Part shown: positions 174 to 13,031 of the stretch, piece by piece
Layout: each line of letters begins with the position of its first letter
Numbering within the stretch: the stretch's first letter is position 1
Assembly: GCA_043821645.1 (NCBI GenBank)
Contig: JBDRCO010000049.1
Coordinates: 1-64,000 of the forward strand
DNA: 64,000 bases
Origin: Pseudomonadota bacterium
Lineage (GTDB): Bacteria; Myxococcota; JACRCW01; JAFGSX01
Direction: 5' to 3'
Translations under genes and position numbers: made by a program
Notes under the pieces: generated by a model
What the model was told of the DNA's origin: nothing
The model's input: only the letters and a program-made list of their open reading frames with translations
Databases searched by the model: none

Positions 174-309
174 GCGGCGTTGGGGGTGTGGTGTCCAGGT
201 GCGCGAGTGCATCGTCCGGATGTTCACCGGTGTGGCTTGCGCGCGCGGGGGGGCTTTGGGATGATGCGCCGACTTCAGCGCGGGTGTGCCGACGCAGCCG
301 CAGTGGGGA

Positions 310-1149
310 ATGCAGGTGGCCAGTTACGAGGAGATTCTCGACAAGCTCCGCGCCATCGACGACAGCTTCGTGCCTGCTGCCGAGAATCGCTTTGCTCCCC
401 TGGTCGTTCGCGGTGCCGCTGCCGTCGACGAACTGCTGGGCCGTCTCGGCGATGACGACGCGGCCGTGCGTGCCGATGCCGCGGAAGCGCTGGGTCTCAT
501 CCGTTCAAGCAAGGCGCTGGCTCCGCTGCGCGAGCACCTGGCCGACCCCGCTCCCGCCGTGCGCTCCAACGCTGCCATCGCCCTCGTCAAGATCGGTGAC
601 GACGCGCTGTTCCCCGAGATCGTCAAGGGTCTCCGCGACGAGGATCCCAAGGTCGTCATCGGGGCTGCGGTCGCGCTCGGACGGATCGCGGACCGGCGCG
701 TGGTCCCCAATCTGGTCGAGGCCTTCAAGAGCGACGATCCCGACGTCGGCTCGGCCGTGGCCTGGGCCATGGGCCAGTGCGGCGATCCCGCGGCACTGCC
801 CTGGCTGATCACGGCCGTGGAGCAGGGCTTTGCCGCGCCCAACGCCTGTGAGGCCCTTGGACGCATCGGCGACCCCAAGGCAACCCAGGCCTTGCTCAAA
901 GCCCTGCACTCGCCCGCAGACGATACCCGGGCCTTCGCCGCCCGCGCCCTGGGAATGCTTCGGCACGAGGGCGCCGGGGGCATGCTGGGGGCTCGGATGG
1001 GCGCCATGGCTGCGAGCCAGGTTGTGCCCGGTCTCAAGCGGTTGCTCCGGGACGGCAGCAAGAAGGTCCGGCTGTGTGCCTCCATCGCCCTGTACGAGCT
1101 GGGCGAGAAGGTTGGGGGTCGGCAGCTGGTCGAGGAACTCACCGGCTGA
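310..1149 (+). CDS. HEAT/PBS-lyase-like repeat protein
   Basis: Recurrent 'L.D.D..VR..AA.ALG.IG' units; ATG 310 preferred over GTG 286. Confidence 0.88.
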   Translation: MQVASYEEILDKLRAIDDSFVPAAENRFAPLVVRGAAAVDELLGRLGDDDAAVRADAAEALGLIRSSKALAPLREHLADPAPAVRSNAAIALVKIGDDALFPEIVKGLRDEDPKVVIGAAVALGRIADRRVVPNLVEAFKSDDPDVGSAVAWAMGQCGDPAALPWLITAVEQGFAAPNACEALGRIGDPKATQALLKALHSPADDTRAFAARALGMLRHEGAGGMLGARMGAMAASQVVPGLKRLLRDGSKKVRLCASIALYELGEKVGGRQLVEELTG

Positions 1150-1216: not shown

Positions 1217-1927
1217 ATGCTTCGCGAGTCCGCCAGCCGTCGACGGGACCGCGCTGGCGTGGTCCTCGACGCTCTATTGAAACACTTTCCCGACGCCCGC
1301 ATCGAATTGCGGTATGCCCCCGACGATGCCTGGCAGCTGCTGACGGCGGTGATGCTCAGCGCCCAGTGCACCGACGCCAAGGTCAACGCAGCGACGCCGG
1401 CTCTTTTCGCGCGTTTTCCCGACGTCCGTGCCATGGCACAAGCCCGACCGCATCAGGTCGAGCCTGTGATTCGCTCGCTGGGGCTGGCGCCCACCAAGGC
1501 GCGCAACCTGGTGGCGGCAGCTCGCACCGTCGTGGCGAGTCATGCTGGCCGTGTGCCGGGTACGCGTGAGGAACTCGAGGCTCTGCCTGGGATAGGGCGC
1601 AAGTCGGCGAGCGTGATCCTAGCGAACGCTTTTGGTGTTCCTGCGCTTGCGGTCGACACGCATGTCGGACGCATTTCCCGGCGCCTCGGGTTGACGACGG
1701 AGAAGGACCCGGACAAGGTCGAGTCTGTCCTCGAGGCGCTGTGGCCCGAGGAGCGGTGGCTCGGAGCCCACCACGCCTTGATCTGGCTCGGGCGGCGCAT
1801 CTGCCACTCTCGAAAGCCGTTATGCGAGATGTGCCCTGTGCAGGTCTGGTGCCCGCAGATCGGCGTTCCGATGCTGTCTGCGAGGCCTGACCCGGGAACG
1901 CGCGAACGTACCCCGGGGAGGCGTTGA
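1217..1927 (+). CDS. nth: Endonuclease III
   Basis: LSAQCTD, HhH LPGIGRKSA, AVDTHV, 4Fe-4S motif CHSRKPLCEMCPVQVWC; GGGAG before ATG 1217. Confidence 0.95.
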   Translation: MLRESASRRRDRAGVVLDALLKHFPDARIELRYAPDDAWQLLTAVMLSAQCTDAKVNAATPALFARFPDVRAMAQARPHQVEPVIRSLGLAPTKARNLVAAARTVVASHAGRVPGTREELEALPGIGRKSASVILANAFGVPALAVDTHVGRISRRLGLTTEKDPDKVESVLEALWPEERWLGAHHALIWLGRRICHSRKPLCEMCPVQVWCPQIGVPMLSARPDPGTRERTPGRR

Positions 1928-1933
1928 GCAGCG

Positions 1934-3268
1934 TCACCGGTACTTGAGGAAGGACCGGATCATGTCGCGCACGACCTCGTCGAGCGTCACATTCTTGGTG
2001 CGCGAGATCTCCTGCAAGCCGCTGAGTTCCTCCTGGCTGAGGCGCACCGGGACGGTCTGGGTCGGGGCGCTTCCGCTGCGGCTGACCTGGGTTTTCTGGT
2101 CCGTGCCCTCTCCCGAGCGCAGGAAGCTCTCGCCCTGAGGCGCCTCTTCCTCCTCCACTCCCGGGTCGGACAGCGCCCGAGCACCCACGTCCTCGGGCTC
2201 AACGATCTGGGCTTCGAAGTCTTCGATGCGGGCCTGGGCTGCACGCATCAGCTGGACCTGCTCGACCTCAAGCTCGTCCTCGAACAATTGCTTGATGAAG
2301 TTGCTCAGGTGGATGTTGGACGGGGTGAACTCGTGCCCGCCGAGGAAGGTATCGATGTCGAGCTGCATGTCCCACGCGGAGGGGTAGCGTCGCTCGCGGT
2401 CCTTCTCCAGTGCCTTGAGCAGGATACGTTCGATGGCCTCGGGCACGTCCTCCTTGAAGTAGCTGGGCGGGTAGATCTTGCCGTCGACGATGGCCTTGAG
2501 GATGGCCATCTCGTTTTCACCTGTGAATAGCTTGTAGCCGGTGACCCACTCGTAAAGCACGGTGCCGATCGAGAACACGTCGGAACGGTGATCGAGAACT
2601 TGCCCGAGGCATTGTTCCGGCGACATGTACGAGAGCTTGCCCTTGATCTCGCCGGCGCGGGTCTGCTCGAGCTGGCTGGTCGCCTTGGCGATACCGAAGT
2701 CGAGGATCTTCACGTTGCCCGTGAACGACACCACGATGTTCTCGGGGGTGATGTCCCGGTGCACGATGTTCAGGGGCTTGCCGTACGCGTCGGTACGGTT
2801 GTGTGCGTAGTAGAGGCCCTCGAGAACACTGGACGCGACCTTGAGCGCGTAGACCAGGGGGAAGGGGATGCCCTTCTTCTCGGCCTTGGGGATGATGCGG
2901 CTCATGTCCCGGCCGGAGACGTACTCCATGGCGATGAAGTAGCTCTGGCCGACGCGGCCCAGATCGTAGATCTGGACGATGTTGGGGTGGTTGAGCTGGG
3001 CCGCCAGCTTGGCCTCGTTGAGGAACATGTTGACGAAGGCGGGCTGGCTCGACAGGTGAGGTCGGATGCGCTTGAGGCAGATGATCTTCTCGAAACCCTC
3101 GACGCCCGCTTGGCGGGCCAGGAAGATCTCGGCCATGCCCCCGACGGCGATGCGATTGAGCAGAGTGTACTTGCCGAATCGAGTCCCGCGCATCGGGCGC
3201 AGCAGGCCGCGAGGGGACGCCGCGGACTGTCTCGGGCTGCTGCGCGAGCTCTCCACGCGATCACCCAC
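1934..3268 (-). CDS. Cytoplasmic Hanks-type Ser/Thr protein kinase with C-terminal ribbon-helix-helix-like segment
   Basis: AVGGMAEIF, CLKRI, HRDITPEN, DFGIAK, YMSPEQ, RSDVFS; no transmembrane helix; start may be ATG 3193. Confidence 0.93.
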   Translation of the reverse strand: MGDRVESSRSSPRQSAASPRGLLRPMRGTRFGKYTLLNRIAVGGMAEIFLARQAGVEGFEKIICLKRIRPHLSSQPAFVNMFLNEAKLAAQLNHPNIVQIYDLGRVGQSYFIAMEYVSGRDMSRIIPKAEKKGIPFPLVYALKVASSVLEGLYYAHNRTDAYGKPLNIVHRDITPENIVVSFTGNVKILDFGIAKATSQLEQTRAGEIKGKLSYMSPEQCLGQVLDHRSDVFSIGTVLYEWVTGYKLFTGENEMAILKAIVDGKIYPPSYFKEDVPEAIERILLKALEKDRERRYPSAWDMQLDIDTFLGGHEFTPSNIHLSNFIKQLFEDELEVEQVQLMRAAQARIEDFEAQIVEPEDVGARALSDPGVEEEEAPQGESFLRSGEGTDQKTQVSRSGSAPTQTVPVRLSQEELSGLQEISRTKNVTLDEVVRDMIRSFLKYR

Positions 3269-3271
3269 TGT

Positions 3272-4586
3272 CTAGCGCTGCTTTCGCCGCAGCAGGGCCA
3301 CGGCACGTTCGGCGTCGTCGGCGACGAGGTCCTGGTCCAGGGCCACCAGTTGGCGGTCGCGCACCACGAACTGACCATCGACCAGCACATGCCGAACATC
3401 GCTGGAGCGCGCCGAGAACAACAAAGCCCGGGCGGGATCTGCGCCGGCACGCTGGTGCGTGCTCGACATGTCGATGATCGCAAGGTCTGCACGCTTGCCG
3501 GGCTGGACGCTGCCGATTTCGCTGTCCAGGCCCAGCGCCTCGGCACCGCGCAGGGTCGCCATCTCCAGCAGCTGCCAGGGGTCCACCGGTGCACCACCCG
3601 GCCGGGTGCGGGTGGCCAGGGCCAGCACGCGCAGGGCCTCGAGAACGTCGTGGCTACCTGCCGTGACCACGCTCCCCGTGCCCAGGGATACGTGGATGCC
3701 TTGCTGCATCCACTCGGTGGCCTTGGTCAGGCCCGCCCCGCTGCGCAACTCGGCCACGGGGCAGTGGGCGACCCGCGTTCCGGACTCCTTGAGCAGCTTG
3801 TGGTCGCGGGCGGTCAACCACACGCAGTGGGCCAGCACCACATCGGTGCCTGTGAGCCCCACGTCGTGGAGGTGGGCCAGGGTCTCGCCGCCAAAGCGGG
3901 CCCTGAACTGTTCGACTTCTGCCGAGGTCCAGGCTGCCCGGGCATGCACCAGGCATCCCGCCCCTCTGGCCCGACCGATGACCTCGACCAGTAGTTCCTC
4001 GCTACAGCCCAGCACGTCCCAGGGAAGGTAGGCGTAGCGTAGCCGGCCGTCGGCCGATCCGTGCCACAACTTGCGTAGCTTCTCGGTCTCGGCCAGGGCA
4101 GCGCGGACGCGATCCCGAGATCCGCCGCTGCCCTCGGGCTCTCCCAGCACCTTGCCCGTCGTCAGCCGGATGCCAGTCTCGCGCCCCGCCTCGAACAGCG
4201 CCTCCACGTGGTGGCGACTGCCCGCGTCGAGCACGGAGGTGGTCCCGCCAAGAGCACACTGGGCCAGACCCAGCCGCGCCGAGGCCCGCATCATCTCCGG
4301 GGTGAGTTTTGCCTCGAGCGCCGTCAGAGCACTCTCATCGACCAGGGAGACCTCGTCGACGAAGCTGCGCAGCAGCGTGTGCGCCAGCCGCACGTGAGAT
4401 TGTACAAAGCCCGGTAGCACCACACAGCCGCTGATGTCCACGACGGTGGCGGGCCGTCGAAGCTCGCGACGTGCGTCGGGACCGAGCGCCAGCACGCGAC
4501 CCTCGCGGATCACGATGTCGCCCCTGCACGACCGTGCGCGCCGGGACCATGGGCAACACCTGCCCGCCGCGCAGCACCATGTCCAT
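3272..4586 (-). CDS. Amidohydrolase (MtaD/5'-deoxyadenosine deaminase-like) with degenerate active site; 1-nt frameshift near the 5' end
   Basis: VLPGFVQSH, GGTTSVLD, VLAHCVW, GSVQPGKRADL, DVRHVLVDG; MDMVLRGGQV..VQG joins DIVIREG if one base of the C4 run at 4521-4524 is removed. Confidence 0.85.
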
Positions 4587-4589
4587 GGC

Positions 4590-5036
4590 TCAGCGCCTCC
4601 TCTGGACCTGTGAAGGATCGAAGCGACGCGGGAGCAGCGTCGAAAGCTTCAGACGCATGATGCGTCCCTCGGGATTGGTGAGCAGCACCCGCAACTCGGG
4701 AGCGAACTCTGCCAGCACCTGTCGGCAGGCGCCGCAGGGGCTCGCCGGCTCCCGCAAGTCGGTGGCGATGGCGATGGCCTTGAACTCGCGCTCGCCCGCC
4801 GCCACGGCCGCTGCCACGGCATTGCGCTCCGCACAGATCGTCAGGCCAAAGGATGCGTTCTCGACATTGCATCCCGTGAAGACCCGGCCCGAGCTCGTGC
4901 GCAGAGCCGCCCCGACAGAGAATTTCGAGTAGGGAGCATGGGCGTTGTTCCGAGCTGCCAGTGCCAGCGCGCAGAGTTCTCGCTCGGATGAGCGCGAGGG
5001 CACGGTGGCCCTGGATGTCGCGCGCGTGTTCGGCAT
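4590..5036 (-). CDS. cdd: Cytidine deaminase (homotetrameric type)
   Basis: HAPYSKFSVGAAL, GCNVENASFGLTICAER, SPCGACRQ; GGAGGAG RBS. Confidence 0.96.
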   Translation of the reverse strand: MPNTRATSRATVPSRSSERELCALALAARNNAHAPYSKFSVGAALRTSSGRVFTGCNVENASFGLTICAERNAVAAAVAAGEREFKAIAIATDLREPASPCGACRQVLAEFAPELRVLLTNPEGRIMRLKLSTLLPRRFDPSQVQRRR

Positions 5037-5057
5037 ACAGCAACTCCTCCCGCGCGG

Positions 5058-5096
5058 ATTGTAGATGAAGACGTGCGGGGCGTCCGCAGGTTTTTT
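5058..5096 (-). promoter_or_regulatory. Possible internal promoter for cdd-amidohydrolase-kinase
   Basis: Minus-strand TACAAT (5063-5058), inverted repeat TGCGG-N5-CCGCA (5074-5088) over the -35 zone, A6 tract (5091-5096). Confidence 0.35.
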
Positions 5097-5234
5097 GTCG
5101 ACGGAGCGACGTGACAGGCTCGGGCCTGCTTGCGCAGGAGGCTGCTCCGGCCCGGGGGGAAGGCGACACGAGGTGCGTCGTCCAGGGCGGCATCGGGAGG
5201 CCGCCGAGCCCGGATCAAGCCTGGCGGCCCTGGT

Positions 5235-6104
5235 TCAACCCAGGGTCTGCCCAACCTCCGGGACCAGGTCCTGCAAGAGGCCCACGAAGGCCGAGGTGAC
5301 CCGGTCCGCGGTCTCCTTGACCTCGTCGTGGTTCAGGGGTTGCGACGAGATGCCGGCCGCCAGGTTGGTGATGCAGGAGATGCCGAGGACAGGTACCCCG
5401 CGATGGCCACAGGCGATGGCCTCGGGCACGGTCGACATGCCGACCGCATCCACTCCCCAGCGCTGGAACATGCGGATCTCTGCCGGCGTCTCGTAGGACG
5501 GCCCGAGCAGGCCGAGGTAGACGCCGCTCTTGAGCGCCAGGCCGCGCCGTGCGGCGACTTTGGAAGCCAGTTCGCGCAGGGCTCGTGAGTAGGTATCTGA
5601 CATGTCGGGAAAGCGGGGCCCCAGGCGATCGTCGTTGGCTCCGACGAGGGGATTGTGCGAGCTCAGGTTGATGTGGTCCCGGATCAACATCAGGTCACCG
5701 GGCTGCAACCCGTCACCGAGTCCCCCGGCGGCATTGGTGAGGATCAGGACCCGCGCTCCGAGTTCCATCAGGACCCGCACCGGGAACACCACCTGCTGAG
5801 GGCTGTAGCCCTCGTACATGTGCACGCGCCCCTGCATGACGAGCGCCGTGGTGCCGCCCAGGGAGCCCACCACGAGCTGGGATTTGTGGCCTGACACGCT
5901 GCCCTGCGGAAAGTGCGGGATCTCGGCATAGGCCAGTGCCTGCGCCTTGTCGAGCTGGTCGGCAAAGGCACCCAGACCCGAGCCCAGGACCACACCCACG
6001 CGCGGGCCCGGAGGCAGCGAGATGCGCTCGCGCACGAAGGCCGCGGCTGCTGCGATCTGTTCGTAGCCTGGACTGTCCATGAGAACCTCCGGGTGGGTCA
6101 CCAC
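5235..6104 (-). CDS. punA: Purine nucleoside phosphorylase (trimeric type)
   Basis: VLGSGLG, QGRVHMYEG, TNAAGG, GPSYETPAE, VGMSTVPE, ITNLAAG. Confidence 0.95.
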   Translation of the reverse strand: MVTHPEVLMDSPGYEQIAAAAAFVRERISLPPGPRVGVVLGSGLGAFADQLDKAQALAYAEIPHFPQGSVSGHKSQLVVGSLGGTTALVMQGRVHMYEGYSPQQVVFPVRVLMELGARVLILTNAAGGLGDGLQPGDLMLIRDHINLSSHNPLVGANDDRLGPRFPDMSDTYSRALRELASKVAARRGLALKSGVYLGLLGPSYETPAEIRMFQRWGVDAVGMSTVPEAIACGHRGVPVLGISCITNLAAGISSQPLNHDEVKETADRVTSAFVGLLQDLVPEVGQTLG

Positions 6105-6144
6105 CTCGCGATGTGCGCTACCTCGCCCGGCGGGCGGCGTCGAA

Positions 6145-7821
6145 TCACAACAGCATTCCTGCCACGGTGGCGGTCATGAAAGCGGCGAGGGTGCCACCGA
6201 TCATGGCGCGCAGGCCCATGCGTGCCAGGTCCTGCCGGCGCTCAGGCGCGATGCCACCGATGCCGCCAATCTGGATCGCGATCGAGCCGAAGTTGGCGAA
6301 GCCACACAGGGCGTAGGTCGCGATGACGATGGAACGCGGGTGCGCGATCTGGTTGCTGGCCAGCATGCCGGCCAATTGCTGGTAGGCGACAAACTCGTTG
6401 AGGATGGTCTTGACGCCCAGCAGCGAGCCGATGAGGGGCGCGTCCTGCCAGGGCACACCCATCAGCCAGGCCAGGGGTGCGAGCAGGATACCGAGAATGC
6501 GCTCCATCGACCACGGCATCCAGCTGGTGACATCGCGGACCGTGCCATCGTGCAGGACCTGGTCGAGACACTGCTTGAGGGCCAGGGCACCATCTGGCTC
6601 GGCGCAGCCTGCGGGGAGCGGGAGGCCGGCCCGGCCCAGGGCGTCCACGGCATGCCCCCAGGCAGCCTGGTTGTGCCATAGCGCTGGAAGCCCGATCAGG
6701 GCATTGGCCATGGCCACCAGGGCGATGAAGGCCAGCAACATGGCGCCGACGTTGAGGGCGAGCTTGAGTCCGTCTCCTGCGCCGCGCGAGGCCGCATCGA
6801 TCAGATTGGCGTCGATGCGCTCGACCTTCAGGCGCACCGTGCCGCGGGTCACCGGGTCTCCGTCCTCGGGCCACATGAGCTTGGCGCAGACCAGGGCTGC
6901 CGGCGCACTCATGACGCTGGCCGACAGGAGATGGCCGGCGATGTCCGGGAAGAAGGGATGCAGCATGCCCACGTAGGCCGCCATGACGCCGCCAGCGACG
7001 GTGGCGAAGCCACCCACCATCACCGCCATCAGCTCGCTCAGGGTCATGGTGGCGACGTAGGGCTTGATGAGCAGCGGCGCCTCGGTTTGCCCGACGAAGA
7101 TATTGCCCGCTGCGCTCAGGGTCTCGGCGCCCGAGGTGCGCATGGTCTTCTGCATGACCCAGGCAAAGACCCGCACCACATGCTGCATCACACCGAGGTG
7201 GTACAGCACGGTCATCAGCGAGGAGAAGAACACGATGGTGGGGAGCACTCCGAAGGCGAAAGTGGCGCCGACGCTGGCCCAGTTGCCACTGGCCTGGATG
7301 GGAGCGAAGGGGCCGGCCGCCGCGCCCACCGGCACGTTGGCGGTCCGCGCCAGATTTCCGAACAGGAAGCTGGACCCGGCCTCGGTGAACGAGAGCAGGG
7401 CCATGAATGCGCTGTTGACGACGGAGAACAGCTGCTCTCCGAGGGAGGTCTTGATGACCAGGAGGCCGAACAGGAATTGCAGGCCCAGCCCCCAGGCCAC
7501 CAGCCTCCAGTCGACGCGCCGGTGCGAACGGCTCAGGGCGAAGGCGATGCCCAGCAGCACGCCCAGCCCGAGCAGGCTCATCAGTCGCCCACTCCAGCTC
7601 GTCGTCACTGCCAGCTTCTTGAACTGGCTCAGGTTCACCGGGGCCGGCGCTTCCGGCAGCGGCGTCGGAGTGGGAGGTGCAGCCTGCGCAGCAAGGACCT
7701 CGCCGGCATCCTCGGGCCCGGCGGGTTGCACCCGGTTCGCGTCCTCCGTGGCCAGGACCTGCGAAGAGACGGTCACACCGAGCGCGACGACCAGGGCAAT
7801 GTGCAGGGCGCGCATCCGCAT
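6145..7821 (-). CDS. nupC: CNT family nucleoside transporter
   Basis: VLPTIVFFSSL, GNIFVGQTEAPL, GFATVAG, NEFVAY, YALCGFANFGSIAIQIGG. Confidence 0.93.
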   Translation of the reverse strand: MRMRALHIALVVALGVTVSSQVLATEDANRVQPAGPEDAGEVLAAQAAPPTPTPLPEAPAPVNLSQFKKLAVTTSWSGRLMSLLGLGVLLGIAFALSRSHRRVDWRLVAWGLGLQFLFGLLVIKTSLGEQLFSVVNSAFMALLSFTEAGSSFLFGNLARTANVPVGAAAGPFAPIQASGNWASVGATFAFGVLPTIVFFSSLMTVLYHLGVMQHVVRVFAWVMQKTMRTSGAETLSAAGNIFVGQTEAPLLIKPYVATMTLSELMAVMVGGFATVAGGVMAAYVGMLHPFFPDIAGHLLSASVMSAPAALVCAKLMWPEDGDPVTRGTVRLKVERIDANLIDAASRGAGDGLKLALNVGAMLLAFIALVAMANALIGLPALWHNQAAWGHAVDALGRAGLPLPAGCAEPDGALALKQCLDQVLHDGTVRDVTSWMPWSMERILGILLAPLAWLMGVPWQDAPLIGSLLGVKTILNEFVAYQQLAGMLASNQIAHPRSIVIATYALCGFANFGSIAIQIGGIGGIAPERRQDLARMGLRAMIGGTLAAFMTATVAGMLL

Positions 7822-7838
7822 CCTCCCTCGCCGGGGCT

Positions 7839-9146
7839 TCAGGCCAGGCGCTCGATGACCAGGTGGCCCTGGGGCGGCGCCTCGTGAGCCAGGGTCACCG
7901 CGGCGCGCAGGCGCAGGCAGCAGGCCTCGACGCCTCGATCGTTGTGGTGAATGTCGAACAGCGGCTCGCCGCGCTGCACGCGTTCGCCGACTTTCTTCTT
8001 CACGTGCAGACCGACCGCAGGGTCGATGACGTCGCTGGCGCGGGCGCGGCCACCACCCAGTTCCATGGCGGCGATGCCCACCTGCTCGGAATCGATCGCA
8101 GCCAGTACGCCGTCCTGCTCTGCCAGCAGCGGCTCCACGTGGGCGGCCTGTGGCAGCAAGGTCACGTCGTCGACGACCCGGGGATCCCCGCCCTGGGCTG
8201 CGATGATCTTCTTAAAGGTCTCGGCGCCACTGCCATCCTGAAGAGCCGTGTGCACCCGCGTGCTCCCTTCGTCGAGGGTCGTCGCCACTCCGGCGAGCAG
8301 CAACATCTCGCCACCCAGGGTGCAGACCAGCTCCACGATGTCGTCGGGACCCTTCCCGTGCAGGGTCTCGATGGATTCGCGGGTCTCGACAGCATTCCCG
8401 ACCCAGCGCCCCAGGGGCTGATCCATGCGCGTGAGGTAGGCCACGACCTGCTTGCCCATGGCGCGGCCTGTGCCCACCATCTTGCGCGCCAGGGTCCGCG
8501 CGTCGGTCTCTGTCTTCATGAAGGCGCCGGATCCCACCTTGACGTCGAGCACCAGGGCGTCGATGCCCTCTGCCAGCTTCTTGGACATGATGGACGAGGT
8601 GATGAGGGGGATGCAGTCCACCGTCGCCGTCACGTCGCGAAGGGCATAGAGCTTCTTGTCCGCGGGCGCCAGCGACGAGGTCTGGCCGATGAGGCAGCAC
8701 CCCACGTCGCGCACCGCGTCGTGAAAGCGCTGCTCGTCGAGGTCGACGCGAAAGCCCGGGATGGACTCCAGCTTGTCCAGGGTGCCACCGGTGTGGCCAA
8801 GTCCGCGGCCGCTGATCATCGGGATCTTGACGCCACAGGCCGCCACGGCGGGTGCCAGGGGCAAGGAGATCTTGTCGCCGACGCCACCGGTGGAATGCTT
8901 GTCCACATTGACGCCCGGGATGTCGCTGAAGTCAAGCACCGTACCCGAGCGCAGCATGGCCTGGGTCAATGCGCCCAGCTCGTCATCCGCGAGATCCTGG
9001 AAGAAGACCGCCATGGCGAAGGCCGCCATCTGGTAGTCGGGGATGTCGCCTCGCGTGTAGCCCTCGATCAGCCACTGGATCTGCTCTGGCGCCAGGTGCT
9101 GTCCATCGCGTTTGGACTTGATGATGTCGTAGGCACGCATGCTCAC
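7839..9146 (-). CDS. pdp: Pyrimidine-nucleoside/thymidine phosphorylase
   Basis: DKHSTGGVGDK, SGRGLGHTGGTLDKLESIPG, SIMSKK, DVKVGSGAFMK. Confidence 0.96.
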   Translation of the reverse strand: MSMRAYDIIKSKRDGQHLAPEQIQWLIEGYTRGDIPDYQMAAFAMAVFFQDLADDELGALTQAMLRSGTVLDFSDIPGVNVDKHSTGGVGDKISLPLAPAVAACGVKIPMISGRGLGHTGGTLDKLESIPGFRVDLDEQRFHDAVRDVGCCLIGQTSSLAPADKKLYALRDVTATVDCIPLITSSIMSKKLAEGIDALVLDVKVGSGAFMKTETDARTLARKMVGTGRAMGKQVVAYLTRMDQPLGRWVGNAVETRESIETLHGKGPDDIVELVCTLGGEMLLLAGVATTLDEGSTRVHTALQDGSGAETFKKIIAAQGGDPRVVDDVTLLPQAAHVEPLLAEQDGVLAAIDSEQVGIAAMELGGGRARASDVIDPAVGLHVKKKVGERVQRGEPLFDIHHNDRGVEACCLRLRAAVTLAHEAPPQGHLVIERLA

Positions 9147-9394
9147 GGTCTCCGCCAGTGATGAAGAATTCTGTCATATCAATGGGATGCAAAGGAGGTC
9201 AACGTGAGCCGGGAAGATTCGGAGCACGATTGCGCTCGGCACACATACATACACCCACAATTCCCCACCATCCTCCGGATGACGGATGGTTTCAAACAGC
9301 GGCCACAAGTCCACGTCGACGGCGCTAATGTAGGAAGGCTGCGGGCGCGAGCGTCCCGTCATGAAATGAAGTCCGGGTGGGGTCTGGAGTGGTG

Positions 9395-11344
9395 ATGCGC
9401 CAACTGTTCGTGCTCTCCCGCATCCTGGTGCTGGTGGTGTCTGGCCTGGCGGGCCTGGGTCTTGTTGCTTGCCGACCCGAGGTGCAGGGGCCGTCGACGA
9501 AGGTGCACATTGGCGACGATGATGCCGGAGTGCGTGACGCCAGCGCCGTCGACCATGCGACCTTTGACAGCGCACGACCCGACAGCGCCGTGACCGACAC
9601 CGGGACCGTCATCACCCCGGGCTGCAACGGTGTGTGCAACCAGCTCCAGGCCACGGCCTGCACCTGCGATGTCAGCGACCCCTGCGACTGGGTCGGAGAC
9701 GGCTACTGCGACACCCAGTTCTGCGCAGCGGCGACGAACACGCCCTTCGATGACAGCCTCGACTGCAATCCACCGCCACCGACCTGCAATGGCGAGTGCG
9801 AGCAGGGGACCTACACCACCTGCACCTGCGCGGCAGCGGACCCCTGTGGCTGGGCCGGGGATGGATACTGCGACGGCGACTGTGCCTCCGTGCTGCCCGG
9901 CGCGGCCTTCGACGACACCGCGGATTGCGGAGGCCCGCCACCGCCTCCTGCCAACGCCTGCAACGGAACCTGTGGCAACGGTACCTTTGACAGCTGCACC
10001 TGCGCGGCCAGCGATCCCTGCGGCCGTGCCGGGAACGGGACCTGCGACCAGAGTGCCTGCGCTGGCGTGCTTGCCACCGGCGCCTACAATGATTCGGCCG
10101 ATTGCGGTGGCTGGGATCCCTCGCCGGCGGGGGGCGAGAGCTATGTCGTGACTGCGGTCAACGACAACCTCGACAACGGCGACCTCGACGTGGTGAGCAA
10201 CGCCTTGCCCGGCCTGGGCTTCACACAGACGGCGAGCAACACCAACGTGTCGACCTCGACCCTGGCGGGTTACCTGGCGCAGAACTTGACCGTGCTGTAC
10301 CACACCGGACACGGCGACGTCGGGGAGGTCCTGACCTCCAACGGCTCCTTCGTCCCTGGCAGCGGGACCATCAATGTCCAGCACACGGTCTTCGCCACCT
10401 GCCTGACCTTGCAGTCCTATGCCTGGCGCGCCTCCATGGGGCCGACGGCACAATCGCTGTTTGGCTACACCGAAGTCTCCTACGACTACACCGATGACGA
10501 GGTGGCGCAGGATTTCATCGACGACGTGCGCCTGGGCAAGGGATTCCTGCAAGCCTGGTACCTGTCCAATGCGAGCCAGTCCTCGCTGTATGACCGCTGG
10601 GCAGCGTATGTGCGCGAGGGGGCGGATATCGTCGAGTACTCTGCGCGGGTCAATCGTGCGCCGGCCAATGTTCAGGCGCTTGGCCTGCCTCTAGTGGGCC
10701 TGGACCCTGCAGCGCGAGTGCAGGCCCTGGCCTCCCTTCTCGTCGACAGCGCGCGTTTTCCGCGGGAACTGGTGCCGGTTCATCAGGACGCCGCGGCTGT
10801 GGTCCAGGCGCGGCAGATGGCCGTCGGAAGCTGGAGTCTGCTGCAGGGCGGGGCTGGCACCGTGAAACACGCCCGGCATCGCGCCGAGGAACTCCTGCGA
10901 CGGGAACTCGGTGGTCTGCCCGAGGACGCGGAGCTGGATAGGGTGCTCGACATCGTATCGCGGCGAGGGGAGGGAGAACCCGAGGTGGTGGGACATCTGG
11001 TGCGTTACCGTCGGGTGGTCGCGGGCCTGCCGGTGCGGGGCAACGGGGTGGCGGACCATCTGAGCGTGCTGGTTGGTGGGCGCGGAGTCGTGGCCTGGAC
11101 CGTGCACTGGCCGGAGCGCCGTACCCAGCGCGTGCTCGACGAGGGCCTCGACGTGGCCGACGCACTGCGGCAGATGGCCCCAGCTCTCGCCCTGGTGGCC
11201 AAGGGCCCCCTGCGGCTGCTCGGGGCACGCGCCGTGTGGGGTGCGCTGCGGGGCTCGGACCAGCTGGTGCCTGCCTTTGCCTTCGAGACGGACAGCGGCC
11301 AGCAGGTGGTGGTGGACGCCAGGACCGGTCAGCTCCTGCTGTAG
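9395..11344 (+). CDS. Lipoprotein: three Cys-rich LNR-like repeats, putative caspase/gingipain-fold domain, C-terminal FTP/PepSY-like region
   Basis: Lipobox LVAC; repeats at 9623-10105; YHTGHG...FATCLT; ends VVVDARTGQLL. Confidence 0.75.
   Translation: MRQLFVLSRILVLVVSGLAGLGLVACRPEVQGPSTKVHIGDDDAGVRDASAVDHATFDSARPDSAVTDTGTVITPGCNGVCNQLQATACTCDVSDPCDWVGDGYCDTQFCAAATNTPFDDSLDCNPPPPTCNGECEQGTYTTCTCAAADPCGWAGDGYCDGDCASVLPGAAFDDTADCGGPPPPPANACNGTCGNGTFDSCTCAASDPCGRAGNGTCDQSACAGVLATGAYNDSADCGGWDPSPAGGESYVVTAVNDNLDNGDLDVVSNALPGLGFTQTASNTNVSTSTLAGYLAQNLTVLYHTGHGDVGEVLTSNGSFVPGSGTINVQHTVFATCLTLQSYAWRASMGPTAQSLFGYTEVSYDYTDDEVAQDFIDDVRLGKGFLQAWYLSNASQSSLYDRWAAYVREGADIVEYSARVNRAPANVQALGLPLVGLDPAARVQALASLLVDSARFPRELVPVHQDAAAVVQARQMAVGSWSLLQGGAGTVKHARHRAEELLRRELGGLPEDAELDRVLDIVSRRGEGEPEVVGHLVRYRRVVAGLPVRGNGVADHLSVLVGGRGVVAWTVHWPERRTQRVLDEGLDVADALRQMAPALALVAKGPLRLLGARAVWGALRGSDQLVPAFAFETDSGQQVVVDARTGQLLL
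9623..10105 (+). repeat. Three intragenic ~52-aa repeats with 8 Cys each
   Basis: CNGxC..CTC...DPCx(W/R)xG(D/N)GxCD..C...(F/Y)(D/N)DxxDC three times, separated by Pro-rich spacers. Confidence 0.9.
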
Positions 11345-11453: not shown

Positions 11454-13031
11454 ATGGCGCACACTGCGGCTCAGCACCCCGGCTCCCCGGACGGCCCGAC
11501 CCCACCCCGGATCTCGGGTGGCCACCTGTCCGCGGAGCTCCATAACGAGGTCGAGCACTTCACCCGCCGCCTGCGCAGGACGGTGTGGCTCAAGCTCCGC
11601 GCCGCCCAGGTTGTGCTCGTCGCCAGCGCGGTGCTGTTCGTGGCCACGGTGCACTACGACCAGCGGGTCACGTCCTTCCTTCGCGGCGAGACGGATCTCT
11701 TTGGCAATCTTCGCTTCTTGCCCACGCACCCTCCTGACCCGCGGGTGCTGTCGCACATCAATTTCAAGCTCGTGCACGAGAAGCTGCTGCCGGAGTGGGT
11801 CGCTGCCGAGGGCAGCGCGGGCATGTACCGCGACCCCTACCAGGCTGAAGCCGCATTTCAGGCTCTGCTCGCCGAGGTAGGCCGGGACCCCAACCTCGAC
11901 GCCCTGCTGCAGGAATTGCGACTGCGCCTGGTCACGCGCCAGTTCATCGACCGCGCCGAGCGCATCAAGTACCTGCTCTGGGCCTGGAACGATTATCTGC
12001 AGCGCAACGGACAGCGCTTCTGGGTCCGCGGCACGGCCCATCGCTCGACCTACAACGCCTTCTTCTCGCTCAAGACCTACGATCTGCTGGCCCGGCCCCA
12101 GGTGCAGGTCGCAGGCCAGCAATACCGTATCAGCCTGGTCACGCGCATCGACCGGCGTGACGTGCGCGAGCCCTACCTGGGTGCGGCCAGCAAGAACGAG
12201 AACACCGCCTTCGTCGTCGTGGACAGGCTGCACGATTTCGTGATCGACCACCTGTGGCCGGTGCTCGACGGAGAGGCGGGGGCGCTGCGCGATCCGGTGG
12301 ACGCCGCATTCGCCGAGGCGGTGGTGTTCGAGGCGCTGGTGCACCTGGATGAGGCCAGCCTGCGGCCGGTGGCGACCACGGCGCATCATCGCAGGGCCAT
12401 GGCCCGAGCCATCGATGGCATCAACCGGCGCCAGAGCTGCAGTGGATCCTACGTCGCGGGCAGCATCCCTCTGGCTGGCCTGGAAGCCGATGTCCTGGAA
12501 CAAGTGCAGGACATTGCCGAGCGGTCGTGGTTGGACGCCTGCCCCGCAGTGACCCTGGTCGAAGCCGAGGTTTTTGCCTCCTCGACCCGCGCCCTGGCCA
12601 CGACCGAGGATCTCGCCGAGGCCTTGGGGACCCTGGCGGCGTGGCTTGCCCAGGGTGTGACCGTGCACGAGGTGCGGCACATGGCGGATAGCGACCTCGC
12701 GGATGGTCTGGACCAGCCCCTGCCCTGTGCGCGGTGCCCGGCCAGCATGGATACCGAGGTGCGCGCCGAGGTCTCGGCCTATCTGTCGACACTGGCCTGG
12801 AGCGGATCCCCGGCCACGGCACTGTTTCAGGCCTGCCACTCGGTGCGTGACGACGACGGTGCCCATGGCAGGGCGCTGAATTTCCTGCTCGCGCAGCTCG
12901 ACGTGAGCTGCACCAGATCTCCTCCGCCCTTTCTGGCCGATCGGGCCCGGGCCCTCGAGCGCGAGCTGTTCGAGCGCAGCCAGCCCGTCCGCCTGGGCGC
13001 AGATTTTCCGCAGCGCGTGCTGCTACCCTGA
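11454..13031 (+). CDS. Membrane-anchored hypothetical protein with HExxH metallopeptidase-like motif
   Basis: N-terminal hydrophobic helix; HEVRH at 12666-12680 with downstream AEVSAY; start uncertain (11418 or 11454). Confidence 0.7.
   Translation: MAHTAAQHPGSPDGPTPPRISGGHLSAELHNEVEHFTRRLRRTVWLKLRAAQVVLVASAVLFVATVHYDQRVTSFLRGETDLFGNLRFLPTHPPDPRVLSHINFKLVHEKLLPEWVAAEGSAGMYRDPYQAEAAFQALLAEVGRDPNLDALLQELRLRLVTRQFIDRAERIKYLLWAWNDYLQRNGQRFWVRGTAHRSTYNAFFSLKTYDLLARPQVQVAGQQYRISLVTRIDRRDVREPYLGAASKNENTAFVVVDRLHDFVIDHLWPVLDGEAGALRDPVDAAFAEAVVFEALVHLDEASLRPVATTAHHRRAMARAIDGINRRQSCSGSYVAGSIPLAGLEADVLEQVQDIAERSWLDACPAVTLVEAEVFASSTRALATTEDLAEALGTLAAWLAQGVTVHEVRHMADSDLADGLDQPLPCARCPASMDTEVRAEVSAYLSTLAWSGSPATALFQACHSVRDDDGAHGRALNFLLAQLDVSCTRSPPPFLADRARALERELFERSQPVRLGADFPQRVLLP

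Follow-up and report, generated by a model that had tools for sequence, protein, structure and literature searches.

A Hanks-type kinase with a ribbon-helix-helix-like tail is linked to purine-type amidohydrolases, in part catalytically degenerate, across Myxococcota

Results

A nucleoside gene cluster with a conserved three-gene core

The minus strand of the window, by which we mean the whole 64,000-nucleotide stretch of DNA that was analysed, holds pdp, nupC, punA, cdd, an amidohydrolase gene and a Hanks-type Ser/Thr kinase gene, running from position 9146 down to 1934 in the order and on the shared strand that the initial annotation had described. The source organism belongs to an uncultured groundwater myxobacterium lineage. 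All genes and protein features given below lie on the minus strand. The cluster opens with pdp (7839..9146), which encodes a pyrimidine-nucleoside/thymidine phosphorylase of 435 aa that scores 590.5 bits against NCBIfam NF004490 (cut-off 269) and in which Pfam recognises the domains Glycos_transf_3, PYNP_C and Glycos_trans_3N. It is followed by a NupC/CNT-family nucleoside transporter of 558 aa (6145..7821), with 44 hydrophobic 19-residue windows and with matches to Nucleos_tra2_N, Gate and Nucleos_tra2_C that are all over the Pfam cut-offs. This protein carries an N-terminal extension of ~80 aa and an insertion, and its match to TIGR00804 is split into two stretches and reaches 431 bits, just below the cut-off of 442; although it falls short there, its domain matches make it a member of the Pfam CNT family. 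Next come punA (5235..6104), for a purine nucleoside phosphorylase of 289 aa (NF006054, 361 bits, cut-off 218), and, across a gap of 198 nt (5037..5234), cdd (4590..5036), for a tetrameric-type cytidine deaminase of 148 aa (TIGR01354, 149.4 bits, cut-off 113.65).

From cdd onwards the genes are closely packed. After the cdd stop codon, TGA (4592-4590), come 3 nt and then an ATG at 4586; the amidohydrolase stop codon, TAG (3274-3272), is likewise separated by 3 nt from a GTG at 3268. Both of the 3-nt spacers reported previously can thus be read directly from the sequence. As relatives keep only cdd, the amidohydrolase and the kinase together, the punA-cdd gap probably separates two transcription units; inspection of this gap revealed no convincing repeat or promoter, and operator-like repeats were looked for in two intergenic regions of the cluster and not found. 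Together with cdd, the genes for the degenerate amidohydrolase and the kinase make up the conserved core, which here lies behind a pdp-nupC-punA salvage unit and possibly reads on from it. The wider linkage of the kinase to pdp, nupC and punA, on which the initial annotation had built, did not extend to relatives: it was seen in 0 of 28 loci from the genome set (L018-L045) and 0 of 20 metagenome loci (L104-L123), and was seen in the source genome only.

The 5' end of the amidohydrolase gene

The main amidohydrolase ORF (3272..4513) is 413 aa long as listed, and the true 5' end of the gene lies upstream of it, at 4525..4586, where the frame that begins with the ATG at 4586 reads a typical amidohydrolase N-terminus matching those of the orthologues. 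In the window as assembled, this frame is out of register with the main ORF, the apparent frameshift lying in a G-run with one extra base (4521..4524), which had been missed in the earlier reading of this DNA. Four public runs were compared over the region, and two contigs span position 4521, one from the probable source sample (X1 record 4, depth 7.75) and one from another study (X2 record 10, depth 2.6); both have one base fewer. Since two independent contig sets lack the base, it represents an assembly error or a variant and not the mark of a pseudogene, and the real gene is therefore most likely a single ORF of 437 codons that begins 3 nt after cdd.

A deaminase-like protein without its catalytic ligands

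The amidohydrolase is DadD/MTA-deaminase-like and matches Pfam Amidohydro_1 (PF01979; 179.4 bits, E 1.5e-52) over profile positions 1-345 of 345. Its best sequence family is the 5'-deoxyadenosine deaminase equivalog DadD (NF005557), against which the ORF scores 323 bits (E 2e-96) and does not reach the cut-off of 522; a six-frame search of the source genome gives 331 bits. Orthologues of DadD type with an intact active site reach 568, 538 and 504 bits. Comparison of the motifs with those of orthologues bore out the loss of catalytic ligands noticed in the initial annotation. In the protein from the source genome (G000), HxH is represented by H-V-R, H-x-H-x-x-E by H-A-R-A-A-W and G-x-D-G by G-T-G-S: H40 is kept, and the second His of HxH has become R42, the strand-5 His R192, the catalytic Glu W195 and the strand-8 Asp G280, the residue roles being those established for subtype III amidohydrolases. 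All five columns (40, 42, 192, 195 and 280) are conserved in 30/30 intact relatives.

The source protein belongs to a degenerate clade of at least six sequences, with the change of His192 to Arg common to all six. The other five are 44-58% identical to it; of these, four span the full length, at 432-441 aa, and P0015 (from genome G001), with the motifs HVRAAE and GAGG, is cut by a contig end. The five full-length members of this clade also have R192, D166, R257 and R302 in common (5/5). By contrast, the catalytic residues are kept in 12/12 more distant DadD-type orthologues and in 30/30 further family members. The initial annotation had held that orthologous deaminases retaining their catalytic residues would speak against its proposal; such retention is indeed the rule among the 12 distant kinase-linked DadD-type orthologues, but it breaks down in the clade of at least six sequences around the source protein. 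With all 12 distant kinase-linked partners intact, a dead enzyme therefore does not define the module.

Despite these losses, the protein appears to retain its fold. The 30 intact relatives have 136 columns with a conservation of at least 93%, of which the source protein has kept 79 and lost 57. Its AlphaFold2 model (pLDDT 90.4, pTM 0.92) confidently predicts a (beta/alpha)8 barrel with a small beta-sandwich domain, closest in fold to MTA/adenosine deaminases (TM 0.91; 4gbd, 4f0s). The codon-position GC pattern of the gene is that of a coding frame. When the gene was compared with its counterpart in G001, the one genome of the same family, pN (0.30) was lower than pS (0.54), with zero stops in 272 aligned codons, and the NG86 dN/dS was ~0.41, about twice the kinase value of 0.19 for the same pair. 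Both figures are rough, since the genes are GC3-biased and in part saturated and were compared by plain Nei-Gojobori counting. Judged from its sequence, the amidohydrolase is a pseudoenzyme in the operational sense, having lost its catalytic residues under what this rough estimate indicates to be purifying selection.

A soluble Hanks-type kinase that ends in a ribbon-helix-helix-like tail

The 444-aa ORF at 1934-3268 contains a Hanks-type Ser/Thr kinase catalytic domain in residues 36-295 (2384..3163; Pfam Pkinase, PF00069, 132.5 bits, cut-off 31.7). Invariant in 30 kinase orthologues are K66, E85, H170-R171-D172, N177, D190-F191-G192 and S216-P217-E218, which we take to be the catalytic Lys, the alpha-C Glu, the HRD Asp and its Asn, DFG and an APE-like motif. 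The cytoplasmic location proposed earlier agrees with the hydropathy profile, in which no 19-residue window lies above a Kyte-Doolittle value of 1.6 (maximum 1.31), and the kinase looks both competent and soluble. The longest ORF starts with the GTG at 3268, orthologue conservation starts only near residue 26, and the start codon is uncertain. The catalytic domain is followed by a conserved segment, residues 296-340 (2249..2383), with F314, P316, H320, L321, F324 and Q327 invariant in 30 orthologues; this segment is specific to the orthologue group and is the source of its phylum-wide matches. The family is present in 152 of 251 genomes across Myxococcota, is close to single-copy and is very conserved.

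The ribbon-helix-helix (RHH)-like tail that had been suspected at the C-terminus of the kinase (residues 405-444; 1937..2056) is supported by profile matches and by its predicted fold. The source-genome tail itself matches RHH_1 (E 0.0072; 16.7 bits, under the Pfam cut-off of 20.5) and DUF6290 (E 0.0021; 18.7 bits, under the cut-off of 27), and its best PDB profile match is CopG (E 0.0077). Each of the 20 orthologues whose tails were aligned ends in an RHH tail, with RHH_1 matched by nine (E up to 1, best 3e-6), a FitA-like RHH by six and RHH_4 by five. In the AlphaFold2 model of the tail (pLDDT 86.3), an extended strand is followed by helices H18-31 and H35-49, and the top Foldseek matches are all RHH chains (TM 0.6-0.8, probability up to 1.00), with E-values of 0.08-0.7 and none <=0.001. 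Profiles and model thus support a fold of ~40 residues with the topology of the CopG/Arc/MetJ superfamily. Full-text literature searches found no paper that describes an RHH domain in a Hanks kinase.

Linkage across the phylum and degeneration in two lineages

We then re-examined 40 kinase loci using six amidohydrolase queries over 3.5 kb upstream. A cog0402 amidohydrolase lies within this distance at 22 of the 40 loci, nine lack one and nine are not assessable because of contig ends; the adjacency that the initial annotation had expected in relatives is therefore found at 22 of 31 assessable loci, a count that overstates the number of independent events, kin loci being non-independent. Among ten hand-picked loci, nine of them new (G124 is the contig of L028), five are without an adjacent amidohydrolase. 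Taken together, these five and the nine of 31 imply that the kinase needs no amidohydrolase in cis. The source genome has ~7 cog0402 amidohydrolase genes in 7.07 Mb, so that adjacency by chance would be expected at less than ~1% per locus.

Three types of arrangement track the kinase tree, namely cdd-DadD-like-kinase, SsnA-like-(SAM methyltransferase)-kinase-TruA, and a divergent SsnA gene beside the kinase. The partner is DadD/MTA-deaminase-like in the source lineage and SsnA-like in the Myxococcaceae-type lineage. Amidohydrolase and kinase are 3 nt apart in the source genome and 36-176 nt apart in most DadD-type loci, and a 5'-nucleotidase gene lies upstream at four loci (L021, L022, L023 and L029). 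Other neighbours of the kinase gene are TruA, an rRNA-type methyltransferase, YhbY, MutS, NrdR and a release factor; such neighbours, and the near single-copy state of the kinase, point to a role in housekeeping that is wider than the sensing of nucleosides.

Degeneration was also seen among the SsnA-like partners. SsnA is described in PMC12507026 as a ring-opening amidohydrolase in reductive uric-acid degradation, so that this partner, like the DadD-type one, is purine-related. At L113 and L115 the SsnA-like protein has a HAR motif, Arg or Asn where the strand-5 His belongs, and Ala or Ser in place of the strand-8 Asp. The f11 genomes and L109 have Tyr at the position of the strand-6 His and Gly at that of the strand-8 Asp. 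For the f11 pair G174-G245, dN/dS (again a rough value) is 0.11, against 0.10-0.16 in adjoining genes, which indicates strong purifying selection. The linkage at 22 of 31 loci, and the existence in both lineages of degenerate forms under purifying selection, support the view that the two genes are functionally coupled and that the amidohydrolase acts in a non-catalytic way.

Discussion

Several known systems share elements with this locus. The 5'-deoxyadenosine/MTA/SAH deaminases (NF005557 DadD; 4gbd, 4f0r, 4dyk and TM0936, 1p1m) resemble the amidohydrolase in fold (TM 0.89-0.91) and length, and DadD counts its orthologues from two families away among its genuine members. The source protein differs in its score (323 bits against 522) and in having R, R, W and G for the second HxH His, the strand-5 His, the Glu and the strand-8 Asp; to go by these residues, it would work as a binding protein at most and not as a deaminase. 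Amidohydrolase-fold pseudoenzymes are known in animal CRMP/DPYSL and in the inactive dihydroorotase-like PyrC' subunit of Pseudomonas aspartate transcarbamoylase, which likewise kept the barrel, lost metal ligands and persist in non-catalytic roles. These are cyclic amidohydrolases from another context, whereas the source protein is of the cog0402 deaminase subfamily, and we know of no link between them and a bacterial Hanks kinase.

On the kinase side, the predicted fold of the tail matches the RHH domains of PutA and NikR (TM 0.72-0.79, probability 0.97-0.99). The logic is the same, in that a metabolite module is coupled to an RHH domain, fused to proline-catabolic enzymes in PutA and joined to a ligand-binding domain in NikR; here, however, the RHH domain forms the C-terminal end of a Hanks kinase, its DNA binding is putative and the candidate metabolite binder is a separate polypeptide. 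In Mycobacterium tuberculosis PknK, a Ser/Thr kinase is fused to a large MalT/LuxR-type transcription-factor region. As in the source protein, one chain combines a soluble Hanks kinase with a region of putative DNA-binding or regulatory function, which is of MalT/LuxR type in PknK and a 40-residue RHH here. In the pfk-pkn4 operon of Myxococcus xanthus, the kinase is co-transcribed with an active enzyme which it phosphorylates. As at the source locus, a myxobacterial Hanks kinase gene directly follows a metabolic enzyme gene, but the source kinase has an RHH tail and a partner without catalysis.

With somewhat less than an even chance in our estimation, the amidohydrolase-fold protein provides a purine-metabolite input to the kinase-RHH protein and is a pseudoenzyme sensor where catalysis has been lost. 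The kinase belongs to a family of soluble Hanks kinases that is phylum-wide and close to single-copy; each of them ends in an RHH domain, which would dimerise it and most likely bind DNA, and the family is linked by descent to purine-type cog0402 amidohydrolases. The retained pocket of the amidohydrolase-fold protein may accommodate a purine nucleoside or a metabolite derived from purines. Occupancy of this pocket would be relayed to the kinase, of which the protein may be an allosteric partner or a ligand-dependent substrate, whereupon the kinase-RHH protein would alter the transcription of genes for nucleoside and nucleic-acid metabolism. Catalysis would be lost where sensing can dispense with it, as in the source genome, leaving a pseudoenzyme sensor. 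The pairing of amidohydrolase and kinase, which is found again and again in the phylum, may be an undescribed metabolite-sensing switch.

Several observations weigh against this proposal: kinase loci without an adjacent amidohydrolase, the housekeeping character of other kinase neighbours, the sub-cut-off RHH scores and high Foldseek E-values of the source-genome tail, and the failure to find an operator-like repeat in the two intergenic regions. That all 12 distant DadD-type partners are intact, and at or near the 5'-deoxyadenosine deaminase cut-off, counts against a sensor and favours a simpler reading, a catabolic operon with its resident regulator. Here the kinase-RHH protein would control the amidohydrolase and cdd by phosphorylation or via its tail, the amidohydrolase would be target and not sensor, and degenerate copies would scaffold, bind or slowly decay; the catabolic neighbours cdd and 5'-nucleotidase (at the four loci given above) fit this, as does the precedent of pfk-pkn4. 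Yet if the amidohydrolase were nothing more than a target, one would not expect catalysis to have disappeared in two of its families, each time beside the kinase and under purifying selection (0.11 in f11, 0.41 for G000-G001), nor is such a role suggested by the dead clade's own conserved residues (R192, D166, R257 and R302), and we consider this reading possible but rather unlikely.

It is improbable, in our view, that the gene order was simply inherited without direct coupling, with the kinase-RHH protein as a housekeeping regulator in a conserved nucleic-acid-metabolism neighbourhood. The type of neighbour does track the kinase phylogeny, as vertical inheritance would give, TruA, the methyltransferase, YhbY and MutS are unrelated to purine catabolism, and nine assessable loci have no amidohydrolase; however, drift in gene order is unlikely to yield a partner that varies by clade (DadD-like, same-strand SsnA-like or divergent SsnA) and yet is always of the cog0402 purine type, and the spacers are very short. 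Least credible, and in our judgement very improbable indeed, is that the source-genome amidohydrolase is merely a decaying pseudogene, frameshifted and dead at its active site. A frameshift 22 codons into the gene in the window, the 57 lost positions and a dN/dS about twice that of the kinase would agree with decay, but both independent covering contigs lack the extra base, five other sequences at 44-58% identity share the change of His192 to Arg, pN is below pS without a stop in the aligned codons, the GC pattern is of the coding type and the predicted fold is confident.

Returning to the amidohydrolase as a purine-metabolite input, its link to the adenosine signalling of Myxococcus xanthus is an analogy only, the host here being an uncultured groundwater lineage. 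A more doubtful step, which we regard as unlikely though worth stating, would be to see in the pair a two-protein signalling device of the Myxococcota, phylum-wide and nearly single-copy, in which the kinase is itself a transcription factor by virtue of its RHH domain and the amidohydrolase-fold receptor for purine metabolites, a former deaminase or ring-opening hydrolase, has at least twice become a pure pseudoenzyme sensor. If this is true, the device would report the availability of nucleosides or purines, for example from lysed prey or kin, straight to gene expression.

Organization of the gene cluster

The minus strand of the window carries a tandem array of six genes, in the order and orientation described by the initial annotation: a thymidine/pyrimidine-nucleoside phosphorylase (pdp, 7839-9146; NF004490, 590 bits), a NupC/CNT transporter (6145-7821; three CNT Pfam domains, TIGR00804 at 431 bits, cut-off 442), a purine nucleoside phosphorylase (punA, 5235-6104; NF006054, 361 bits), a cytidine deaminase (cdd, 4590-5036; TIGR01354, 149 bits), an amidohydrolase with its main ORF at 3272-4513 (Pfam Amidohydro_1, E 1.5e-52) and a Hanks Ser/Thr kinase (1934-3268; Pfam Pkinase, 132.5 bits). 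From pdp to the kinase the spacers measure 17, 40, 198, 3 and 3 nt, the longest separating punA from cdd. Because of this gap, and because pdp, nupC and punA are not found near the kinase in relatives (0 of 28 genome-set loci, L018-L045, and 0 of 20 metagenome loci, L104-L123), we divide the cluster into two units (pdp-nupC-punA and cdd-amidohydrolase-kinase), whose juxtaposition appears to be specific to this lineage. The lineage is uncultured: the assembly (G000; 7.07 Mb, 140 contigs, 94.7% complete) has one other genome of its family, G001, in the genome collection examined, and the DNA is present in groundwater and biofilm metagenome runs. The 13 runs listed as containing it include no RNA run, and two metatranscriptome runs from the study of the probable source sample contain almost nothing of it.

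Between 1700 and 9700 we detected no promoter-like site and three terminator-like sites, all on the plus strand (2.7 expected); none was found on the minus strand inside the cluster. In the punA-cdd gap and upstream of pdp, repeats were limited to a single direct repeat of 10 nt and to short inverted repeats rich in GC, none of which we read as an operator. The transporter homologue is longer than its family model (558 versus ~400 residues). Its hydrophobic N-terminus resembles a signal sequence, it has an extension of ~80 residues, and the match to the C-terminal domain is split in two by an insertion. Divergent from pdp, a 655-residue ORF (9377-11344, plus strand) with a lipoprotein-like N-terminus carries three tandem Cys-rich modules of ~50 residues each (pattern C..C.C...DPC.W.GDG.CD) and gave no Pfam match. 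The flanking genes for a HEAT-repeat protein (286-1149, plus strand) and the transcription-repair coupling factor Mfd (13023-16649, minus strand) represent ordinary context. An endonuclease III gene (1250-1927, plus strand) converges with the kinase, their stop codons 6 nt apart, and in another genome (G002) an endonuclease V gene lies directly 3' of the kinase (L020:9255-9992). Both are repair enzymes for damaged or deaminated bases, and their position beside a deaminase-type operon may or may not be meaningful.

An ATG at 4586, 3 nt past the cdd stop, opens a frame that reads a typical amidohydrolase N-terminus and lies one base off the main ORF, the shift falling at a four-G run (4521-4524); in orthologue sequences, the N-terminal piece and the main ORF form one protein. 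Comparison of 3200-5100 with Logan contigs of four public sequencing runs revealed a sole difference, one base missing at 4521. This base is absent from both contigs that cover the site, one from the probable source sample (X1) and one from another study (X2, depth 2.6), the comparison at 4521 resting on these two runs because X3 and X4 do not reach it. The extra base in the window is therefore an assembly error or a minor variant, and the amidohydrolase is most likely encoded by an uninterrupted ORF 437 codons long, in agreement with the 3-nt spacing to cdd proposed earlier.

A putative dead deaminase encoded by a maintained gene

The amidohydrolase in the window finds its best family in the 5'-deoxyadenosine deaminase (DadD) equivalog NF005557, at 323 bits against a cut-off of 522. 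The H-x-H, H-T-H-x-S-E, A-H-C/G and G-x-D-G/A motifs are retained by all 12 orthologues found in other families of the phylum; against NF005557, three of these reach 568, 538 and 504 bits, and the nearest solved relatives of these intact proteins are MTA/SAH and adenosine-analogue deaminases. The corresponding motifs read H-V-R, H-A-R-A-A-W and G-T-G-S in G000, and H-V-R-A-A-E and G-A-G-G in G001, where the contig ends inside the gene. Measured against 30 further intact relatives, hand-picked from the 120 matches listed in a protein search, the G000 protein retains 79 of the 136 columns with a conservation of 93% or more. The ligand and catalytic columns H40, H42, H192, E195 and D280 are present in 30/30 of this intact set, and G000 retains only H40, which bears out the loss of catalytic ligands first suspected from the sequence.

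The protein search also brought up four other full-length relatives, 45-58% identical (P0003, P0004, P0010 and P0012), which together with G000 and G001 make up a degenerate clade. The strand-5 His is replaced by Arg in all six; the H-x-H position reads HVR, HLH, RVQ, QVV and QVV within the clade; and the strand-8 Asp has become Gly in five members, P0003 keeping the Asp. Since the old catalytic positions vary from member to member, the pattern argues against a new common chemistry, whereas the shared derived residues (R192, D166, R257 and R302, common to the five full-length members) argue for a new common constraint. Degeneracy, which had been put forward as a feature of the module, holds for this clade of six, but not for the 12 distant orthologues, every one of which keeps its residues.

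Between G000 and G001, Nei-Gojobori estimates gave a dN/dS of 0.41 for the amidohydrolase (58% amino acid identity over 272 codons) and 0.19 for the kinase (80% over 418 codons), with no stops in either; both ratios are rough because GC3 exceeds 0.8 and synonymous sites are near saturation. Intact pairs of similar kinase divergence share 65-78% amidohydrolase identity. A decaying pseudogene was considered and rejected, given the base absent at 4521 in both covering contigs, the 272 codons without a stop and the dN/dS of 0.41. An AlphaFold2 model built from a 35-row alignment (pLDDT 90.4, pTM 0.92) has as its top fold matches the inhibitor-bound MTA/adenosine deaminases 4gbd, 4f0s and 4dyk (TM 0.91), and thus predicts a well-folded purine-deaminase look-alike devoid of the metal-binding and catalytic residues. 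Taken together, these data suggest that the deaminase is dead and its gene is not. We found no protein above the DadD (NF005557) cut-off in the G000 genome. Elsewhere, this genome encodes an SsnA that is intact (535 bits; cut-off, 444) and one further cog0402 paralogue.

A soluble kinase with a ribbon-helix-helix-like tail

The catalytic Lys, alpha-C Glu, HRD...N, DFG and SPE motifs are invariant across 30 kinase orthologues. As no 19-residue window exceeds a Kyte-Doolittle value of 1.31, the protein is soluble by this simple hydropathy test. A family-specific segment (residues 296-340) follows the kinase domain, and the pattern of the last 40 residues is conserved in 20/20 orthologue tails examined. 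Scanned singly, these tails matched RHH_1 (9/20, best E 3e-6), DUF6290 (9/20), FitA-like RHH (6/20) and RHH_4 (5/20), the window's own tail falling below the Pfam cut-offs (RHH_1, 16.7 versus 20.5 bits), and a profile of all 20 found CopG as its best solved sequence (E 0.0077). The AlphaFold2 model of the tail (pLDDT 86.3) places an extended segment before two helices. Its top Foldseek matches are all ribbon-helix-helix (RHH) proteins (ORF56, CopA, CopG, StnY, Arc, AmrZ, PutA, NikR and ParD), with probabilities of up to 1.00 and TM of 0.6-0.8; none reached E 0.001, as expected for a tail of just 40 residues. On this profile and model evidence we accept an RHH fold, from which we infer that the tail may bind DNA. 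The kinase thus appears to be competent, soluble and RHH-tailed, much as the initial annotation had it in calling the protein cytoplasmic with an RHH-like tail. Prediction of a kinase-amidohydrolase complex (30-row and 35-row alignments), run without controls, scored 0.00 in both runs and gave no answer for or against contact.

Inherited linkage of the kinase family to purine-type amidohydrolases

We scanned a species-representative genome collection and the JGI metagenomes with the kinase alignment, taking 80 loci from each, and kept 20 genome-set loci (L018-L036 and L040) and 20 metagenome loci (L104-L123) whose match was at least 51% identical and mostly reached the tail (L040, L104, L117, L120 and L123 are partial). 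The 120 loci dropped were kinase-domain-only matches (30-53%) to other kinases, many from Actinomycetota. Re-examination of the 40 kept loci with six amidohydrolase queries placed a cog0402 amidohydrolase within 3.5 kb upstream of the kinase in 22; in nine the upstream sequence was too short to judge, and in the remaining nine (L030-L033, L108, L110, L112, L121 and L123) none was found over this distance, L031 having cdd directly before the kinase. The linkage of the kinase to the operon in relatives, on which the earlier proposal depends, therefore holds for the amidohydrolase, at 22 of 31 assessable loci, but not for pdp, nupC and punA.

The 22 loci are of four types. Thirteen have cdd, a DadD-like gene and the kinase on one strand (cdd is present in 12 and cut off by the contig end in L018); two have an SsnA-like gene directly upstream of the kinase (L106, L107); four have the order SsnA-like gene, SAM methyltransferase, kinase, TruA (L109, L113, L114, L115); and three have an intact divergent SsnA (L035, L036, L120; 438-469 bits against 444). 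Four DadD-type loci (L021, L022, L023, L029) have a 5'-nucleotidase gene upstream. Downstream of the kinase, DadD-type loci encode a conserved protein of 410-455 residues, followed by YhbY and MutS (L021:9341-10675, L022:9311-10537, L023:4594-5988, L025:9329-10558, L027:9321-10685, L028:9286-10509 and L029:9445-10791); it gave no Pfam or NCBIfam match, and its G000 homologue (41% identity) lies on a separate contig, C63. At L108, on a contig of metagenomic origin, an internal stop interrupts the kinase orthologue (L108:2521-3729); an NrdR-type repressor gene follows it (L108:3876-4412), and release factor 2 lies upstream.

The C-terminal 152 residues of the kinase match 152 of 251 genomes of the phylum at E <=1e-10 (132 of 210 high-quality genomes; 80 of 83 in the Myxococcaceae-type family f11), nearly always once per genome; the tally of 152 includes one genome flagged as unpublished, G195, on which no other result depends. 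Among the matches listed, about half span all 152 residues and the others just the first 45-90, although G203, partial in this search, aligned through residue 444 in tblastn with the whole kinase. From these genomes, mostly complete ones, we hand-picked ten loci, of which the one in G124 lies on the contig already sampled as L028. The four f11 genomes G174, G245, G145 and G203, out of seven examined, carry the amidohydrolase-methyltransferase-kinase-TruA operon, and at five of the ten loci (G117, G227, G247, G082, G010) no amidohydrolase was found near the kinase. In a quick IQ-TREE maximum-likelihood tree of 45 kinases, with SH-aLRT support only, the orthologue group stands apart from three other kinases (98). 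Loci with DadD neighbours form one clade of 14 rows (94; G000 plus G001, 99), those with SsnA-like neighbours a separate clade of 19 (100) and the divergent-SsnA loci a third (99). The association between these kinases and purine-type amidohydrolases is thus inherited, old and recurrent.

A second degeneration among SsnA-like partners

SsnA acts in reductive urate degradation (PMC12507026). On the SsnA model, the SsnA-like neighbours score progressively lower (191, 147, 94 and 65 bits; cut-off, 444). The protein at L107 keeps all motifs; those of the f11 genomes and L109 keep H-x-H and H..E, with the strand-6 His changed to Tyr and the strand-8 Asp to Gly; and those at L113 and L115 read H-A-R, with the strand-5 His changed to Arg or Asn and the Asp to Ala or Ser. 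This is a second degeneration, independent of that among the DadD-like proteins. For a close f11 pair (G174-G245), the dN/dS of the amidohydrolase-like gene (0.11) is akin to those of the neighbouring methyltransferase (0.14), kinase (0.10) and TruA (0.16), and therefore indicates ordinary purifying selection.

When the upstream regions of five SsnA-like operons were aligned, the only conserved feature was a CGTG[CT]TA..AC box 10-15 nt before the SsnA-like ATG (L184:10556-10575; also at L185, L187, L109 and L193). It looks like a -10 element, and its closeness to the ATG would make the mRNA leaderless or nearly so; no palindrome was found upstream of these operons.

Discussion

In the sensor model considered here, the amidohydrolase-fold protein would bind a purine nucleoside or a derivative and act on the kinase, and a dimeric RHH tail would carry the signal to DNA. 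This is the reading that we favour, tentatively and at slightly less than even odds. Alternatively, the kinase-RHH protein might be a plain regulator and the amidohydrolase the enzyme that it regulates, a reading that we consider less likely. Partners are intact in most DadD-type loci, which points to an ancestral enzyme state: the ancestral partner was probably either an enzyme that also signalled or an enzyme under regulation, and the pseudoenzyme would be derived. Two separate amidohydrolase lineages appear to have lost catalysis, with selection on the genes and their linkage to the kinase both persisting. As for the sensor model in its original form, the pairing of a pseudo-amidohydrolase with a kinase-RHH protein has strong comparative support across the phylum, but the import of a purine by NupC and the salvage of prey nucleic acids rest on a juxtaposition observed only in G000.

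Several known systems invite comparison. PutA and NikR are RHH-tethered metabolite regulators, PknK joins a kinase and a regulator region in one chain, the pfk-pkn4 operon offers a comparison for a kinase-enzyme gene pair, and CRMP and PyrC' are amidohydrolase-fold pseudoenzymes. Excreted adenosine was reportedly described in 1981 as a density signal in M. xanthus. Our search of the full-text literature, with subscription journals outside its scope, found no paper describing a Hanks kinase with an RHH domain and none joining a bacterial amidohydrolase pseudoenzyme with a kinase as a sensor.

Myxobacteria have the largest bacterial kinomes, yet to our knowledge an input or an output has been assigned to very few of the Hanks kinases among them. 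For the kinase-RHH family there is now a candidate for each: a DNA-binding-type tail in the same chain as output, and a genetically linked purine-type amidohydrolase or pseudo-amidohydrolase as input. Complete f11 genomes of 9-12 Mb carry the kinase together with a degenerate SsnA-like partner, so that standard genetic and biochemical work on a cultured relative, in place of this uncultured groundwater lineage, could probably test the idea. If true, it would provide a clear bacterial case of the repeated conversion of an enzyme into a pseudoenzyme sensor.
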